DNA of 64,000 nucleotides from a virus (taxonomy: Duplodnaviria; Caudoviricetes). Positions 3,138 through 45,852 of this stretch are shown here, piece by piece. Positions within the stretch are counted from its first letter, which is position 1; each line of letters begins with the position of its first letter. Made by a program: the position numbers and the translations under genes. The notes under the pieces are model-generated. The model worked only from the letters and a program-made list of their open reading frames with translations, was not told the origin of the DNA and ran no database searches. The stretch spans positions 1 through 64,000 of the IMG/VR virus record IMGVR_UViG_3300020112_002303; one strand, written 5' to 3'.

Positions 3138-4148
3138 ATGTTGGAGTCGTCTTTGGAAAAAATAGCAACAGTAGATAAAGGGGCGAGAAATTATATAATA
3201 GATACCCTTACTAATCGAGATGTTAAGGAAACAAGCTTTCCTAATCAAGCCAAATCAGAACTATTTCGCAACTATAAAGGATGGGAAAAGTCTGACCGGG
3301 AATCTCATAAAAAAGTTTACGAACAAATGAAAAAAACCTTTAATAAAGATAGAGAAGGATATTGTAAATTAGACAGTGATATGAGACGTTATCACGGTAT
3401 GACATATGATATTCCGAGATATAAAAAAGATAATAGTAAAATACGAAAATTTTTAATGATTGAAAGAAAAATTCCTAACCCGGAATGGGAAAAGGCAAAT
3501 AGTAATTATAAAAAACTTTATAACCTTAGGTACAATAAACTTTTTTATGATGCAGATGCTAATGCTTTCGCATTAGAGCAAAAAGGCAAAAAACAAGAAA
3601 AGGAAGCGAACGAAATGTCTGTGTTACTACAAGAAAAACTCGCATATTCGGATGCAAATGTTAACCGCGCAGTACAAATGAATCCGGACGGCACTTATGG
3701 TATGAAAAATAATCTTCGTACCAACTTTAATCATATCAAGCTTGATGTGAAGAATAATACCAATACCACTAAAATCGGAAAAGGCATAAATACCATTAAG
3801 AGTGACGCAACCAATATAAGGAACGCCTTTAAAACAAGCGGAAGTGCCGTAGGAGACGCTTTTAAAAACGGAACATCAAATGTAGTAGGTGCAATCAAAA
3901 ACAAGACAGGCGTAGGTACAGCCATTAAAAACAGTACGTCAAGTGTAGGAAGCGCTATTAAAACCGGCACAGGTACTGTTGGCAACGCAATTAAAGGATT
4001 GAGCAAAGGTTCTAAAATAGGTCTTGGTATTGCGGCCGCAGGTACAGCCGCAGCTATCATAGGAAGTAAGATTAAAAAGAAAAAGGAACAAAATAAAACC
4101 GCCGAAACCTTCGAAGAAATGCTTGAAAAAATGGCAAAAGAACAATAA
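3138..4148 (+). CDS. putative internal-head cargo polyprotein (two modules)
   Basis: MLESSLEKIA leader; internal MSVLLQEKLA at 3615; 11-mer repeats; TM helix + KKKK; ends KTAETFEEMLEKMA. Confidence 0.7.
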   Translation: MLESSLEKIATVDKGARNYIIDTLTNRDVKETSFPNQAKSELFRNYKGWEKSDRESHKKVYEQMKKTFNKDREGYCKLDSDMRRYHGMTYDIPRYKKDNSKIRKFLMIERKIPNPEWEKANSNYKKLYNLRYNKLFYDADANAFALEQKGKKQEKEANEMSVLLQEKLAYSDANVNRAVQMNPDGTYGMKNNLRTNFNHIKLDVKNNTNTTKIGKGINTIKSDATNIRNAFKTSGSAVGDAFKNGTSNVVGAIKNKTGVGTAIKNSTSSVGSAIKTGTGTVGNAIKGLSKGSKIGLGIAAAGTAAAIIGSKIKKKKEQNKTAETFEEMLEKMAKEQ

Positions 4149-4156
4149 GTATTAAC

Positions 4157-4183
4157 AAAGAACCTCCAAAAGAGGTTCTTTTT
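4157..4183 (+). terminator. intrinsic terminator
   Basis: AAAGAACCTC-caaaa-GAGGTTCTTT + T tract. Confidence 0.8.
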
Positions 4184-4188
4184 ATTTA

Positions 4189-4217
4189 TAGACTTTTGAA
4201 AATCCTTGTGATATAAT
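4189..4217 (+). promoter_or_regulatory. SigA-type promoter
   Basis: TAGACT-17-TATAAT, extended -10. Confidence 0.6.
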
Positions 4218-4245
4218 TAAAAAAAATGCAAAGGAGTAGTGATAT

Positions 4246-7083
4246 ATGAGCGCATCACAAGACCAAATTTATTTTAATATAGACGGCAGGATTGTAACTT
4301 CGCCGATTCAATGGGAAGATGTTGCTGTCGTAGGAGATTCCGGTTCTCGAAAAATAAAGTTTATTACAAATAAATTTGTAGACGGAATAAATCTCTATAC
4401 AAAGAATATTAGAGTTAATTTCGTAAATGCCGGTCTTGAGGAAGGTCAAGATTTAGTATCAGAAAAAGAAAATATATCAACAGAAAAGTTCTGTTTTTAT
4501 TGGGTGTTATCATCTAATGTTTGCAAGACCGAAGGTTTTGTTAAATTTTCAATAGAGTTTTATTCTGAAGCAGAAAGTTTTACCCTTTCAACTATTCAAA
4601 ATTCGAATAAAATATTTATCCAAAAGTCTATAACTTTAGGAGAACATGAAGTATTTCCCCCGACAGTACAACAGGGCGATTATAAGGACGATCCTGTATT
4701 TATCTCAAACAGACAGATTATTATTCCTGACAATAAAAAGATAAGCGCCGTAGAAGGCGATAAGAATTCCCAATTTATTTCGTTTATAATGGATAAAAAA
4801 ATAGACGGGATAGATCTAACAAAAAAAACCGCTCATATTGCATATATTAACGCAGAAGGAATCAAGGGCTGTGCTCCGACAACACAAGTTTCTGTTGTTC
4901 AAAGCGATGATAGCCTTATTACTTTCGGTTGGATACTTGATGCTCTTGTTTGTAACAAACCGGGCAAAGTGTCATTTAGCGTATTCTTTACAAATCCTAC
5001 AAATGATTCTGATGATGAGACAGAAGATACCGAATCAGATTATTTTTGGTCAACTATGCCGGCAACCGTTTTTATCGAAAAAGGTATCGGCGAAATCTCG
5101 ATTTCTCCTCAGCCCACTGAAACATGGATGGCGAATTGGCTTCGACAATTAAGTCAAGTCGCTCAAATTGCCGCATCCTATCATATTGATTATAATATTC
5201 ATACAGTATATAGTGACCCACAAGAATCTACCGTAACTGAACTTAAAATAGGATTTAAAGGTAAAAATGATACAGATTTTAATTATACCCCAGATATAGT
5301 TAAAATAATAGAAGGTATAATAGGTGATAAAATTTCTTCTGATACGACGCTTAGGGCTGCTATACTGGCAATAGCTCAAGAAGTCATACCCAGTCAGTTT
5401 ATTGTCGATCAAACTTTCGATGGAACAAGCATAAGAGCACAGAGCGGCGTAGCTATAAGCAGTATAGTTAACGCAAAAGCGAATAAAGATGCTCTTGAAG
5501 AAGCCAACAAAAGAATCGAGAATTTAGCTTTGCTTGCTAAGGGCGTATTATACAATGATCAGATTGATTCGACTGTGGCTTACACTAAAGCTATTCCTGC
5601 GGGTGCACAAAAATATGCGTCGATTGACAAAATTGGCGGCAAAACCGTTGTATTTAATCAGCTGGCGAACAAAGCTCTTTATCCTGCGACAACTACGTAT
5701 AATGGTGTTACTTTTACAAATAATAATGATGGAACCATTACTGCGAATGGTACCAATGTTTCAGTTGATGAATTAGTATACACGTTACAAAGTTTAACAT
5801 TAGATACAACTCATAAATACTTATCGATAGGTTGTCCTGTTACAGATTTTCCGCAATTACAAAAACCTTTTTTAAGAATAACAAATGCTACCGATTCTGA
5901 TTATGGCAATGGTGCAATATTGCAACCGACCGTGTCATCAACATCAATGTCAATTAGAATACCCGCAAGTATTACAGTTTCTGCTATTATTTTTAAACCG
6001 CAGTTATTCGATTTAACATTAATGTTCGGCGCAGGAAATGAGCCGACAACAGTTGATCAATTCAGAAAGATGTTTCCGGATACCATGTATTCGTATGACG
6101 CCGGTAGTTTGTTGTCAGCAAAAACAAACAAAATTGTCAGTGTAAGTAAAAATTTATTTGATTTTTCGAAATTACCTAATACAATAACTAACGCAACAGT
6201 AAACAAAACAAATAACACTATAACTGTTAATGCTAACACGACTAATGTAGGTTCCGGAAAAACACTAAAACAACTTTGTCCGGAATTAAGAGCCGGCGAC
6301 ACCGTTACATTGAATGCAGTGAATTCGAGTGCTGTTGCTGATAAATTGATATATTTATATTCTATACAAACATCATGGAGTTTTGGTACATCAAAAACAA
6401 TAACACAAGATATCTTGAATAGTTCTGTTTACTTTTACAATAAAGTAAATAATCCTGATGCTAACACTATTTCAGAAATACAAATAGTAAGAGGATCGTA
6501 TACATCTCAAACAATTCCTTCTTATACACCGTACAAATCACCTATCGAAAAAACAATACCGCAAGCAGTACTGAATTTAGAAGGTTATGGTTTGAGTGCC
6601 GGCACAGTATATAATGAAATCGACTGGGAAAGAAGAAAACTTATTAAGAGAGTTGGAAGTATCGATCTTGGCACACTGACATGGGTAGTAGGTTACGATG
6701 GTTTTTATACTGCCGGTATATCTAACATTAAATACGCCAGTACAACGACAGAGCAAGCAAATATCGTGTGCAAAAACTATGTTACAAAATCATATTCCGC
6801 CAAACAAAATAAAACAATTTGTGCTTGGAGCGGAGGAAATTGCGTGCTAATTACCGACAATTCATACAGTTCGGCAGAAGCATTTAAAACAGCAATGAAT
6901 GGAGTTATACTTTATTACGAGCTCGTGACACCAGCCGAAGTAGATATTTCTGATAAAATTTCAGAAGATAATTTAATCGAAGTCGAAGCAGGCGGTTCAC
7001 TAACTTTCGAGCAAGTCGGAAATTATCAATTACCGACACCAAACACAGAAACATTTATTATAAAGGTGGCTAACGCAATATGA
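4246..7083 (+). CDS. tail fibre / baseplate-attached protein with two BppU-like N-terminal domains
   Basis: duplicated V.GD.(S/N)S..I.F...K..DGI.L...F.W.L...VC...G.V.FS module; Thr/Asn-rich fibre C-terminus ending LYYEL..P typical of Firmicute phage fibres. Confidence 0.7.
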   Translation: MSASQDQIYFNIDGRIVTSPIQWEDVAVVGDSGSRKIKFITNKFVDGINLYTKNIRVNFVNAGLEEGQDLVSEKENISTEKFCFYWVLSSNVCKTEGFVKFSIEFYSEAESFTLSTIQNSNKIFIQKSITLGEHEVFPPTVQQGDYKDDPVFISNRQIIIPDNKKISAVEGDKNSQFISFIMDKKIDGIDLTKKTAHIAYINAEGIKGCAPTTQVSVVQSDDSLITFGWILDALVCNKPGKVSFSVFFTNPTNDSDDETEDTESDYFWSTMPATVFIEKGIGEISISPQPTETWMANWLRQLSQVAQIAASYHIDYNIHTVYSDPQESTVTELKIGFKGKNDTDFNYTPDIVKIIEGIIGDKISSDTTLRAAILAIAQEVIPSQFIVDQTFDGTSIRAQSGVAISSIVNAKANKDALEEANKRIENLALLAKGVLYNDQIDSTVAYTKAIPAGAQKYASIDKIGGKTVVFNQLANKALYPATTTYNGVTFTNNNDGTITANGTNVSVDELVYTLQSLTLDTTHKYLSIGCPVTDFPQLQKPFLRITNATDSDYGNGAILQPTVSSTSMSIRIPASITVSAIIFKPQLFDLTLMFGAGNEPTTVDQFRKMFPDTMYSYDAGSLLSAKTNKIVSVSKNLFDFSKLPNTITNATVNKTNNTITVNANTTNVGSGKTLKQLCPELRAGDTVTLNAVNSSAVADKLIYLYSIQTSWSFGTSKTITQDILNSSVYFYNKVNNPDANTISEIQIVRGSYTSQTIPSYTPYKSPIEKTIPQAVLNLEGYGLSAGTVYNEIDWERRKLIKRVGSIDLGTLTWVVGYDGFYTAGISNIKYASTTTEQANIVCKNYVTKSYSAKQNKTICAWSGGNCVLITDNSYSSAEAFKTAMNGVILYYELVTPAEVDISDKISEDNLIEVEAGGSLTFEQVGNYQLPTPNTETFIIKVANAI

Positions 7084-15820: not shown

Positions 15821-15857
15821 AAAATAAAAGGGAGCGCAATGTGCGCTCCTTATTTTT
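15821..15857. terminator. bidirectional terminator
   Basis: GGAGCGCA-atg-TGCGCTCC flanked by A/T tracts. Confidence 0.8.
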
Positions 15858-16317
15858 ATTCTTCGTCTTCGTCAATTTCGATATCTTCGATATCTTCATC
15901 TTCGATGTCTTCGTCATTCTTCTTGCTTTTAATAACAAGAATTGTTGTTGCGACTGCTGCTGTTGCTGCCAAAACTGATCCTGCGATGATAAGTAGTTTC
16001 TTTTTGCTCATCTTGTTTTCAGCTCCTTCGATCATTTTATCTGCTCCGTTTTCTGGTGCTTCAACTGTTTTCTCAACTGTCTCGTTAACGGTTTCTTCAA
16101 CTGTTTCCTCAACTGCCTTTGCCATCTCTGGTTCCTCCTTTTTGATTTCTTCTTTGACTTCATTAGTCTTTGCCATTGTGGTTTCCTCCTTTTTTGTCTC
16201 AACCTTTTCGGTTTTAACTGTCTTTGCTTTTTTGGTTTCATTTGCCTTTGCCATTTTTACTGTCTCCTTTTTTGTTTCTTTTTGAGTTTCATTTGTTTTT
16301 GTTTGAGTCTTTGCCAT
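15856..16317 (-). CDS. membrane-anchored low-complexity protein with six SD-preceded in-frame starts
   Basis: ATGs at 16317, 16254, 16176, 16125, 16035, 16011, each after GGAG(G)/GGAAGG; C-terminal TM helix + acidic tail. Confidence 0.8.
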   Translation of the reverse strand: MAKTQTKTNETQKETKKETVKMAKANETKKAKTVKTEKVETKKEETTMAKTNEVKEEIKKEEPEMAKAVEETVEETVNETVEKTVEAPENGADKMIEGAENKMSKKKLLIIAGSVLAATAAVATTILVIKSKKNDEDIEDEDIEDIEIDEDEE

Positions 16318-16341
16318 TTTTAGTTTCCTTCCTTTCTTTTG

Positions 16342-16359
16342 GTTTTATATCTTATACGA
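16342..16359 (-). promoter_or_regulatory. candidate phage-specific promoter/operator, copy 1
   Basis: TCGTATAAGATATAAAAC, 17/18 identical to 39041-39058. Confidence 0.5.
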
Positions 16360-16453
16360 TAAAAATACCATTTTTAAAAAAATGGTAAAATGGTAAAATA
16401 CCAATTAAACAGTTACGAATAGGATAACCATTTAACAACAATTTATTTAAAAG

Positions 16454-16482
16454 TTGACGAAATAGCATTTTTGATATATAAT
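16454..16482 (+). promoter_or_regulatory. SigA-type promoter of packaging operon
   Basis: TTGACG-17-TATAAT. Confidence 0.8.
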
Positions 16483-16547: not shown

Positions 16548-17840
16548 ATGACCGATCGACTCGAAGTTAACATCCAAGATTTACCTGACGAATGTAAACA
16601 CACAATATTAACGATGGAAAAACTTGGGCATTTAAAATATCTTAGATATTTATTATCAAAAAGATATCCACCACTACCATTGATAATGGAATTAAAAAAA
16701 CTTGGTCTATCTTCTCCTCAAGAAGATATGCTGATTGTTTATTTTAATAATGTTATTTGGCCAGCAGTAGAAAAATTCGGACTAAAAGGATTTTATGGTG
16801 AATATAAAGCGAATATAAATAATAAGAAAAAGATTCGCACAAATAAAAGTGTTTTAAATTTTCGTATAGATGTAGCACCGAATGTTGATTCCCAAGTAAA
16901 TTTTTTAAAATTTATCTTTTATCTCGATGTAGACAATTTATGGATGAGCGAAGTAAAGAGATATTACGGATCTTCTTCAAATTTTCCTGTAGATGAAAAC
17001 GGAGACAGATTGCTTGTGTCGAGTTTTGGTAGTGCAACCGCCACATCATATACCTTTGAAAAAATAGTTCAGCATCCCAAAAGATATATGATAGACAAAA
17101 TGATTCTTGAAGATGTTCCTGACACAAGAATAAGTGAATGGGTAAAAAGAGAATTAAACATGAGCCTGTCAGTAGCAGACATCACATTGTACAGAATATC
17201 TTTCTTTAATATTAGAGCATTCAGTATAGAAGAAAAAATAAAGATGTTAGAAAAAGAGCAGAAGTATTTTGAGCAAACGCTTAAGGATTTAGACAGAGAA
17301 AATGCGAGTTTGCCAGAGCAAATGACTTCCGGCGAAAAATTAGGCTTGATAAGAGCAGCGGAACTCCGAATAGCTGAAATCAAGGATAATATATTGACCT
17401 TAAATTCTCGATATAACAATACTGTAAACGGTATTTTAAATCAAGATTCCGAAGATGTTGTAACAATGGTCGAAACAATGATCAGAAAAACTTATGACAA
17501 ATTCTCCGAAGTATCACAAACACATGACCCGTCTGCTATTTCCCCGATGTATACCTTAACAAGAAGTTTCTGTTTATTAACGGATAAATTGGAAACCGTT
17601 AAAAATCAAAGTGCTTCTAATCCCGAAAGAAATCATACTGATGCCGGTGCGGACGCTGCCATTCTTCAACTTTACAAACAAAAGATTGAAGATATGAACG
17701 GAGCAGACGGCTACATGTTCGATGAGAATGAAGGAGTTTCTCCAAGCGACATATCGGGTATAGAAGAACTAAATGTTGCATATAAAGACGACGATGATGA
17801 AGATATAGAAATGGATGATGGTGAAGATTATGGAGAATAA
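16548..17840 (+). CDS. hypothetical helical protein, possible terminase small subunit
   Basis: upstream of TerL; two HTH-like segments, coiled coil, acidic tail; function inferred from position only. Confidence 0.4.
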   Translation: MTDRLEVNIQDLPDECKHTILTMEKLGHLKYLRYLLSKRYPPLPLIMELKKLGLSSPQEDMLIVYFNNVIWPAVEKFGLKGFYGEYKANINNKKKIRTNKSVLNFRIDVAPNVDSQVNFLKFIFYLDVDNLWMSEVKRYYGSSSNFPVDENGDRLLVSSFGSATATSYTFEKIVQHPKRYMIDKMILEDVPDTRISEWVKRELNMSLSVADITLYRISFFNIRAFSIEEKIKMLEKEQKYFEQTLKDLDRENASLPEQMTSGEKLGLIRAAELRIAEIKDNILTLNSRYNNTVNGILNQDSEDVVTMVETMIRKTYDKFSEVSQTHDPSAISPMYTLTRSFCLLTDKLETVKNQSASNPERNHTDAGADAAILQLYKQKIEDMNGADGYMFDENEGVSPSDISGIEELNVAYKDDDDEDIEMDDGEDYGE

Positions 17841-45423: not shown

Positions 45424-45852
45424 ATGATTACAATTAAAGTAAAATATATCGGCAATGACGAAGAAGGAATTCTTATTGGCGGAGAACTTTGTCGACCAGG
45501 AAAAGTGAGAGAAGTCACTATTGATGAAGAACAATTGGAAGTTCTCAAGAAAGCGACGAAGAGAGTTCCTCCGTGGATTGAATTAACTGATTACGATGTA
45601 GCTGTTGCCGAAGAAACTGTTGAAAAAACTGTTGAAGAACCGGTTGTTGAAGAAACAGTTGTTGAAGAAACAGTTGTTGAAGAAACAGTTGTTGAAGAAA
45701 CAGTTGTTGAAGAAACAGTTGTTGAAGAAACAGTTGAAGAAACAGTTGAAGAAACAGTTGAAGAAACAGTTGATGAACCGGCTGTTGAAGAAGTAGCTAC
45801 TGAAAAAGTAGCCGAAGAAGCTCCGAAGACCAAAAAAGGTCGCAAAAAATAA
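45424..45852 (+). CDS. small post-capsid protein with VVEET repeats and basic tail
   Basis: AAGGAG RBS; low-complexity linker. Confidence 0.75.
   Translation: MITIKVKYIGNDEEGILIGGELCRPGKVREVTIDEEQLEVLKKATKRVPPWIELTDYDVAVAEETVEKTVEEPVVEETVVEETVVEETVVEETVVEETVVEETVEETVEETVEETVDEPAVEEVATEKVAEEAPKTKKGRKK
45643..45768 (+). repeat. 6 x 15-bp + 3 x 12-bp perfect tandem repeat
   Basis: GTTGTTGAAGAAACA x6, GTTGAAGAAACA x3. Confidence 0.95.

Follow-up and report, generated by a model that had tools for sequence, protein, structure and literature searches.

We analyzed a small phage gene whose reading frame holds six methionine codons, each placed behind a ribosome-binding sequence of its own. The gene lies in a stretch of 64,000 nucleotides (nt), here called the window, which comprises positions 1 to 64,000 of the IMG/VR virus record IMGVR_UViG_3300020112_002303 (Duplodnaviria; Caudoviricetes). 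The complete record has 102,257 bases, 35% GC and an estimated completeness of 67%; the large terminase shares only about 30% identity with those of Bacillus phages, and a search of known phages with the DNA returned no match. Phage and host are uncultured, and the complete genomes of its relatives measure 150-170 kb. The gene occupies positions 15856-16317 of the minus strand, encodes 153 amino acids (aa) and ends with a stop codon at 15856-15858. The gene is real (Table 1). As a preliminary description of this DNA had stated, it is monocistronic, has a terminator of its own downstream and is preceded by a motif of non-SigA type.

The gene and its six in-frame start sites

On the minus strand, in-frame ATG codons occur at 16317, 16254, 16176, 16125, 16035 and 16011, and the products predicted from them are 153, 132, 106, 89, 59 and 51 aa long. 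A Shine-Dalgarno (SD)-type sequence lies 8-11 nt ahead of every one of the six, and the first four sites all read ATG GCA AAG. Coordinates, sequences and product lengths agreed throughout with the preliminary description, which had also pointed out the common ATG GCA AAG. The last two starts correspond to residues M95 and M103, are eight codons apart and resemble each other in sequence (GGAGCAGATAAA-ATGA versus GGAGCTGAAAACAAG-ATGA).

Over its first 312 nt, the coding region is composed of 52% A and 10% T and has an almost unpaired centroid fold; the mean unpaired probability around the six starts ranges from 0.53 to 0.78. These data bear out the earlier view that the K/E/T-rich N-terminus consists for the most part of A-rich initiation-region sequence. 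By phage codon usage, the N-terminal part scores -3.56 per codon in frame 0, compared with -4.20 and -4.65 in the other frames, and its frame 0 score is as good as that of the part encoding a membrane helix and an acidic tail. Because frame 0 is best by codon usage and a 163-aa paralogue, described below, likewise places a long charged N-domain ahead of helix and tail, we take the N-terminal part to be coding.

These data bear on the alternative that the 51- or 59-aa form is the functional product, preceded by some 300 nt of unstructured, purine-rich leader that offers standby ribosome entry and is open in frame by chance. Several analogues are indeed short, namely a 71-aa protein in a related contig (L009) and the products of a 65-aa and a 73-aa gene in the same genome under the same motif, and T-poor sequence seldom makes stop codons; frame 1 of the 306-nt N-terminal part contains two stops with an open stretch of 74 codons between them. 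However, the five start-to-start distances (63, 78, 51, 90 and 24 nt) are all divisible by three, an outcome with a chance of about 0.004 that would be unexpected of a mere leader. Frame 0 is clearly the best by codon usage, the paralogue is itself a normal product with a long N-domain ahead of helix and tail, and upstream starts of the strength found here would be translated anyway. We therefore regard a short main product as distinctly unlikely.

Origin of the start stack

Four copies of a 38-nt unit begin at successive distances of 63, 78 and 51 nt. Copy D1 (16309-16346), the first of them, covers the true untranslated leader and shares 71% identity with the reference copy. Each unit is laid out as AAAAAGGAG, 9 nt and ATGGCAAAG, and this arrangement of SD, spacer and ATGGCAAAG is common to all copies. 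When the copies were aligned by anchoring on their ATGs and the three internal ones were compared over columns -30 to +36, the core formed by AAAAAGGAG and ATGGCAAAG, i.e., the SD and ATG-GCA-AAG, was invariant at 18 of 18 positions, whereas the 9-nt spacer was invariant at only one of nine. All non-core columns together, spacer included, were invariant at 14 of 48 positions (Fisher, 7e-8, versus the core). Downstream of the peptide MAK, the repeat units follow a less strictly kept peptide pattern, [T/A]-N-E-[T/V]-K, that includes indels, and the fourth unit leads into a repeat with a 12-nt period coding for E-T-V-E.

The direct repeats are thus a multiple of three in length and include the original leader and its SD, as is expected of gene elongation by in-frame tandem duplication. 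We have high confidence that the stack represents old copies of one unit, made by serial in-frame tandem duplication of the gene's own initiation region. We also considered whether pieces of leader had been borrowed from other genes and rejected this origin, since an SD followed by ATGGCAAAG is found nowhere else in the genome.

A sequence resembling the 12-nt-period repeat occurs elsewhere in the window. A 142-aa open reading frame (ORF) at 45424-45852 on the plus strand, located after a capsid-like gene, contains a long (V)VEET repeat, and over 59 nt its DNA shares 85% identity with the repeat that encodes E-T-V-E in the studied gene.

Strength of the start sites

SD sequences were scored by their pairing with the 3' end of a Firmicute-type 16S (anti-SD). 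Pairing energies of the six in-frame sites, in the order of translation, are -12.2, -9.3, -12.2, -12.2, -7.2 and -10.1 kcal/mol, as opposed to only -0.9 to -4.0 kcal/mol at the five out-of-frame ATGs of the gene; an SD is therefore present at 6/6 in-frame and 0/5 out-of-frame ATGs (Fisher p = 0.002). As background we used simple ORF calls over the 102-kb record, which gave 119 genes with 651 internal in-frame ATGs. Genome-wide, 63 of these 651 reach -6 kcal/mol or lower and 13 reach -8 or lower. In the studied gene all five internal ATGs pass the first threshold and four of five the second, so that it holds four of the 13 strongest internal sites of the genome. The only other genes enriched for internal SD-ATGs contain trivial M-x-M pairs with one common SD.

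Three randomizations were applied to the gene. Shuffling of codon order gave five of five sites at or below -6 in 1 of 3000 trials (P ~3e-4). With the protein fixed and codons redrawn from genome usage, a mean of 3.1 of the five internal sites still reached -6, and four sites at or below -8 were obtained in 1 of 3000 trials (P = 3e-4). Synonymous permutation within the gene gave P = 0.31 at -6 and P = 0.019 at -8. The strength of the SDs is beyond what the protein sequence dictates.

The fixed-protein result also feeds the main rival explanation, a fossil duplication with the same in-frame origin in which translation begins almost only at the first ATG. Its internal cores would persist as the repeated K-K-E...M-A-K peptide of a charged, possibly helical spacer, or would be too young to have decayed. 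Most internal SDs arise anyway when the protein is held constant, and other conserved amino-acid columns of the repeat, e.g., N-E (AAT GAA), are likewise conserved as nucleotides. Moreover, AlphaFold shows one long helix at residues 4-86, with low confidence, and the 163-aa paralogue has an equally long N-domain that is made from a single start. What a fossil explains less well is the pattern itself, since an invariant SD, a variable spacer of fixed 9-nt length and an invariant ATG-GCA-AAG are what a start site predicts, and the K and E residues of the cores are encoded in all copies by the rarer codons AAG and GAG, whose genome usage is 27% and 17%, respectively. A strong SD followed by ATG in unstructured, A-rich RNA is, in addition, normally enough for initiation in low-GC Gram-positive bacteria. 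We consider translation almost only from the first ATG to be less likely than the use of several sites.

Beyond the window, at genome positions 65005-65150 on the plus strand, there is a CU-rich candidate small RNA with a TTGACA-17-TATATT promoter and a terminator at its end. Its reverse complement reads as several SD-spacer-ATG units.

The preliminary description had raised the possibility that the mRNA of the studied gene acts as a sponge for 30S subunits. In a broader form of this proposal, the mRNA would be chiefly a decoy, either for 30S subunits or for the candidate small RNA (genome 65005-65100), an antisense counterpart of SD-AUG units. Such a role would suit six strong SDs on one short, purine-rich transcript, and two of the internal sites rank among the best 5% in predicted duplex energy with the candidate small RNA. 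However, any purine-rich RNA scores well against a CU-rich one, so the duplex energies are not specific; the in-frame layout, the coding-type codon usage and the conserved protein module point to a translated gene, and titration of ribosomes would require implausible amounts of transcript. A decoy function is very improbable, and our analysis yielded nothing in favor of the 30S sponge.

The membrane helix, the acidic tail and related genes

All six predicted products share a single hydrophobic helix and a tail in which 15 of the last 20 residues are D or E (Table 1). A single-sequence AlphaFold model, with an overall predicted local distance difference test (pLDDT) score of 58, places a helix of low confidence at residues 103-136. 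The charges flanking the membrane segment suggest a topology with the N-terminus inside the cell and the tail outside.

Helix and tail match the C-terminus of a 163-aa protein encoded at genome 64429-64920 (BLASTP E = 2e-6, 38% identity), and both proteins end in DEDEE. The paralogue is preceded by the same upstream motif and also has a long charged N-domain; its gene contains 47% A, yet no internal SD at or below -6. Other motif-driven proteins of like layout have 65, 73 and 99 aa in the same genome, 71 aa in L009 and 67 aa in L045. Helix plus acidic tail appears to be the working module of the protein, and the phage carries it in several paralogous small genes.

No comparable start stack was found among about 36 motif-driven genes of three related genomes. 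Since the paralogue of like composition lacks a stack as well, the stack is an elaboration specific to this lineage, confined to one gene of a small set, and does not simply accompany K/E-rich composition.

The two starts next to the helix invite comparison with holins. In the dual-start holins of lambda, S105 and S107, two start codons separated by a few codons precede the helix of a small membrane protein. The present gene likewise encodes a small one-helix membrane protein with a charged C-terminus and two close starts before the helix, each with an SD, and M95 and M103 might accordingly be read as a lysis-timing pair like S107/S105. Unlike the lambda gene, however, it has no lysis context: no lysin-like gene is adjacent, and the neighbors are without family matches. 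Its promoter class is not the late-lysis kind, as its motif is shared with a sigma-factor gene (L025) and an HU-like gene, neither of which is a late lysis gene; the tail is strongly acidic, and four further starts upstream would be left unexplained. A holin/antiholin-type dual start is hardly credible on this evidence.

Regulatory elements around the gene

The motif upstream of the gene, GTATAAGATATAAAA, belongs to the group motif GTATAAGWWATAAAA. Exact copies of GTATAAGATATAAAA stand ahead of genes in related phages with protein identities of only about 35%, mostly at a distance of 33-43 nt from the ATG. Membership in the motif-driven set was taken as GTATAAGWWATAAAA within 33-70 nt of a start codon, and the distance here is 40 nt. 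With at most one mismatch, the genome contains eight copies, all on the minus strand; apart from that of the studied gene they lie at genome 39056, 64093, 64386, 64958, 87127, 87403 and 95749. Counts on the two strands of three complete relatives (153-168 kb; records G001, G002 and G005) were 22/0, 0/19 and 7/0, and a reversed control gave 0. No common -35 element was visible at the motif copies. The motif is a conserved promoter-like element of the whole phage group, and in each of these genomes it is confined to one strand. It also precedes the sigma-factor gene of the relative L025 and the HU-like gene of the same genome mentioned above.

No SigA-type promoter was found upstream on the strand of the gene, in line with the preliminary description; a near-consensus promoter of this type at 16454-16482 faces the other way, toward the structural genes. 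The gene is probably transcribed from the group motif, and we suspect that it is an early gene.

A perfect palindrome, with additional direct repeats TTTTACCA, lies directly upstream of the motif at the position of a -35. TGGTA words were not found at the other motif copies. The palindrome may be an operator for a regulator specific to the promoter of the studied gene.

Table 1. Features of the gene with six in-frame starts and of related motif-driven genes (window coordinates unless marked genome or contig)
Feature	Position	Strand	Remarks
Promoter-like single-box motif GTATAAGATATAAAA	16343..16357	-	40 nt ahead of first ATG; no conserved -35
Perfect palindrome, 10-bp arms, TACCATTTTT/AAAAATGGTA	16366..16387	.	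directly upstream of motif
Short A-rich leader with first SD AAAGGAAGG (16327-16335)	16318..16342	-	SD energy -12.2 kcal/mol
Coding sequence, 153 aa, with all six in-frame starts	15856..16317	-	frame 0 best by phage codon usage
Repeat unit 1, 63 nt: ATG GCA AAG, T/K/N/E-rich codons, SD of unit 2 at end	16255..16317	-	repeat families D1-D3
Repeat unit 2, 78 nt; start = SD 16264-16272 + ATG 16252-16254	16177..16254	-	-9.3 kcal/mol
Repeat unit 3, 51 nt; start = SD 16186-16194 + ATG 16174-16176	16126..16176	-	-12.2 kcal/mol
Unit 4, 90 nt; start = SD 16135-16143 + ATG 16123-16125; then 12-nt-period repeat (E-T-V-E, 16061-16115)	16036..16125	-	-12.2 kcal/mol
Starts 5 and 6, 24 nt apart, just before membrane helix: ACGGAG (16044-16049)/ATG 16033-16035; AAGGAG (16023-16028)/ATG 16009-16011	16009..16049	-	-7.2, -10.1 kcal/mol
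Single hydrophobic membrane helix, residues 108-129, KKK before it	15931..15996	-	hydrophobicity scan
KSKK, then acidic tail, 15 D/E in last 20 residues	15859..15930	-	homologous to tail of paralogue at genome 64429-64920
Intrinsic terminator, 8-bp stem, 6 G-C pairs, T run	15831..15849	-	reads as terminator on plus strand too
Motif-driven small proteins, one or two membrane helices and D/E-rich C-terminus	genome 64429-64920, 64128-64349, 86766-87065, 87137-87334 (L003, L005); L009:4306-4521; L045		

Phage context and searches for relatives

Searches with the gene product gave little. A word-indexed search of 5.8 billion proteins, made with the whole protein and, against shorter proteins, with helix plus tail, returned nothing, as did HMMER against 1.84 billion representatives. 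Querying four related records, among them two complete genomes, with the protein was likewise without result. ESM Atlas gave only scores of 0.80, which is chance level, and Rfam nothing near the gathering score. No significant match was obtained in Pfam or PADLOC, and PHROGs gave one weak match, to a family of unknown function. Superinfection exclusion, which the preliminary description had named as an example of what the membrane protein might do, consequently has no homology behind it.

Between the studied gene and the terminase, a 430-aa protein is encoded on the plus strand at window positions 16548-17840. It is kept in about 20 phage contigs at 27-41% identity and has an invariant N-terminal H..R-Y-L..K-R motif and no family match. 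None of the approximately 20 contigs with relatives of this neighbor carries an orthologue bearing the N-terminal extension of the studied gene; the 71-aa protein of L009 is a positional analogue.

Comparable genes and known systems

Two SD-N9-ATGGCAAAR sites at a distance of 24-54 nt were found in 5 of 2.9 million viral contigs, representing three genes, none of them related to the studied gene. Three successive AAGGAG-N9-ATG sites occurred in 34 viral contigs, most of which were tandem repeats in non-coding or giant-virus DNA. Three natural analogues emerged. One is a gene at 3472-4299 on the minus strand of a 71-kb viral contig (L092), which encodes a 275-aa, K/A/E-rich protein and has four in-frame SD-ATG sites at its start, with energies of -12.1, -11.3, -12.6 and -9.7 and T/K/N/E-rich codons in between; a search for its relatives returned only L092 itself. 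In a second case (L033), the SD and the first ~14 codons are duplicated. The third is a prophage gene beginning MAKATRNNTTNKEETKMAKY (L031, L032, L034, L101, L107, L115, L116 and L121), which has two in-frame SD-ATGGCAAAR sites 16-17 codons apart. All eight contigs keep both sites in frame, and the stretch between the sites shows an in-frame 3-nt indel. These contigs comprise viral ones and five from metagenome-assembled genomes (MAGs) or genomes of Clostridia type (Anaerovoracaceae, Clostridiaceae, Lachnospiraceae and Oribacterium).

Like the studied gene, the L092, L033 and prophage genes stack in-frame SD-ATG sites at the N-terminus amid A-rich codons for T, K, N and E. They differ in that their proteins are unrelated, that they have two to four sites compared with six here, and that none has the layout of helix plus acidic tail. 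In-frame start stacks from duplicated initiation regions thus recur in phages, and six in one small gene is the most extreme case found.

Repeats of a related kind were also seen in a Bacteroidales MAG (OY762227.1; L100 and L111). They are arrays of 21-nt tandem repeats in which every unit consists of an SD and ATG GCA AAG, and the arrays (MAKESVT, MAKERCA, ...) are open for 30-75 codons.

In-frame internal initiation as such is established. Retapamulin-assisted profiling (Ribo-RET) identified 42 in-frame internal sites shared by two E. coli strains, and infB, mcrB and clpB are named in that study as characterized genes with two isoforms each (bioRxiv 10.1101/520783). A 2026 review describes N-terminal proteoforms as an under-annotated layer (PMC13515050). 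The E. coli cases resemble ours in that an SD-like sequence precedes the internal in-frame start and the proteins are nested, and here all five internal ATGs have such a sequence at a working distance of 8-11 nt. They differ in having two isoforms per named gene (bioRxiv 10.1101/520783), while our gene has six predicted sites in 153 codons, with four copies of one unit. Gene elongation by in-frame tandem duplication offers a second parallel, as a 5' segment was apparently duplicated in tandem and the protein lengthened; in contrast to the general process, the duplicated unit here approximates the initiation region itself, is present four times and has diverged except in the SD and ATG-GCA-AAG. 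In-frame internal starts and gene growth by tandem duplication are both known already, and the studied gene unites them, with the ribosome-entry site as the duplicated unit, present four times, and two further starts. In the full-text literature searched we found no account of a gene whose initiation region has been duplicated several times, which does not prove novelty.

Discussion

Our analysis goes beyond the preliminary description in two respects: in-frame tandem duplication is put forward as the origin of the stack, and helix and tail are assigned, by sequence comparison, to a paralogous set of motif-driven genes. We propose that duplication of the initiation region built the N-terminus of this protein and that several of the six starts are used, giving rise to nested proteins with a common helix and tail; we assign this reading as a whole a probability of roughly 0.55. 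The N-terminal part of about 100 residues would have grown by repeated in-frame duplication of the SD, the 9-nt spacer, ATG GCA AAG and a few codons, and would have been lengthened further by expansion of the 12-nt repeat. In every copy the SD would have stayed intact and correctly spaced, within an mRNA that is rich in A and almost free of structure, so that ribosomes would most likely load at several of the six sites and produce the nested proteins of 153, 132, 106, 89, 59 and 51 aa.

Our confidence that initiation occurs at several of these sites is moderate, because SD strength, spacing, RNA accessibility, maintenance of the frame and conservation of the core over the spacer all argue for it. 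The preliminary description had weighed multi-entry loading for a burst of a membrane protein, a length ladder and the 30S sponge; multi-site loading with a length ladder of one membrane module is, in our judgment, the most plausible consequence of the stack.

Several points weigh against use of the internal sites. The peptide K-K-E-x-x-x-M alone yields an SD-like sequence, so that only the strength of the sites is unusual, and nucleotide-level and peptide-level constraint are inseparable. As three of the five internal sites are copies of a single repeat unit, they are not independent events, and the chance statistics given above need discounting. No orthologue with an N-terminal extension was found in any of the protein, viral-contig or synteny searches. 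In addition, ribosomes elongating from the first start could cover the sites downstream.

If several starts are used, the main effect would be more of the helix-plus-tail module per transcript, rather than functions specific to individual isoforms. Because only helix and tail are common to the paralogues, the comparison weakly suggests that the pay-off is dose. We tentatively extend this idea to selection: the stack may be kept as a translational gain device, in which up to six independent entry sites would provide a several-fold burst of one membrane module. The number of copies of the initiation region would have determined the gain over evolution, and the class would also include the L092 gene and the prophage gene with two sites. 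As for the role of the module, modification of the envelope or exclusion of other phages is a guess.

The finding would be of use under either outcome. If the internal sites are unused, the gene would be a clean example of a disordered N-terminal extension born from non-coding leader sequence. If they are used, it would provide a natural test of whether initiation flux adds up across in-frame sites on one mRNA and of whether repeat number tunes protein dose, and it would show that single-start annotation can miss most products of a gene.

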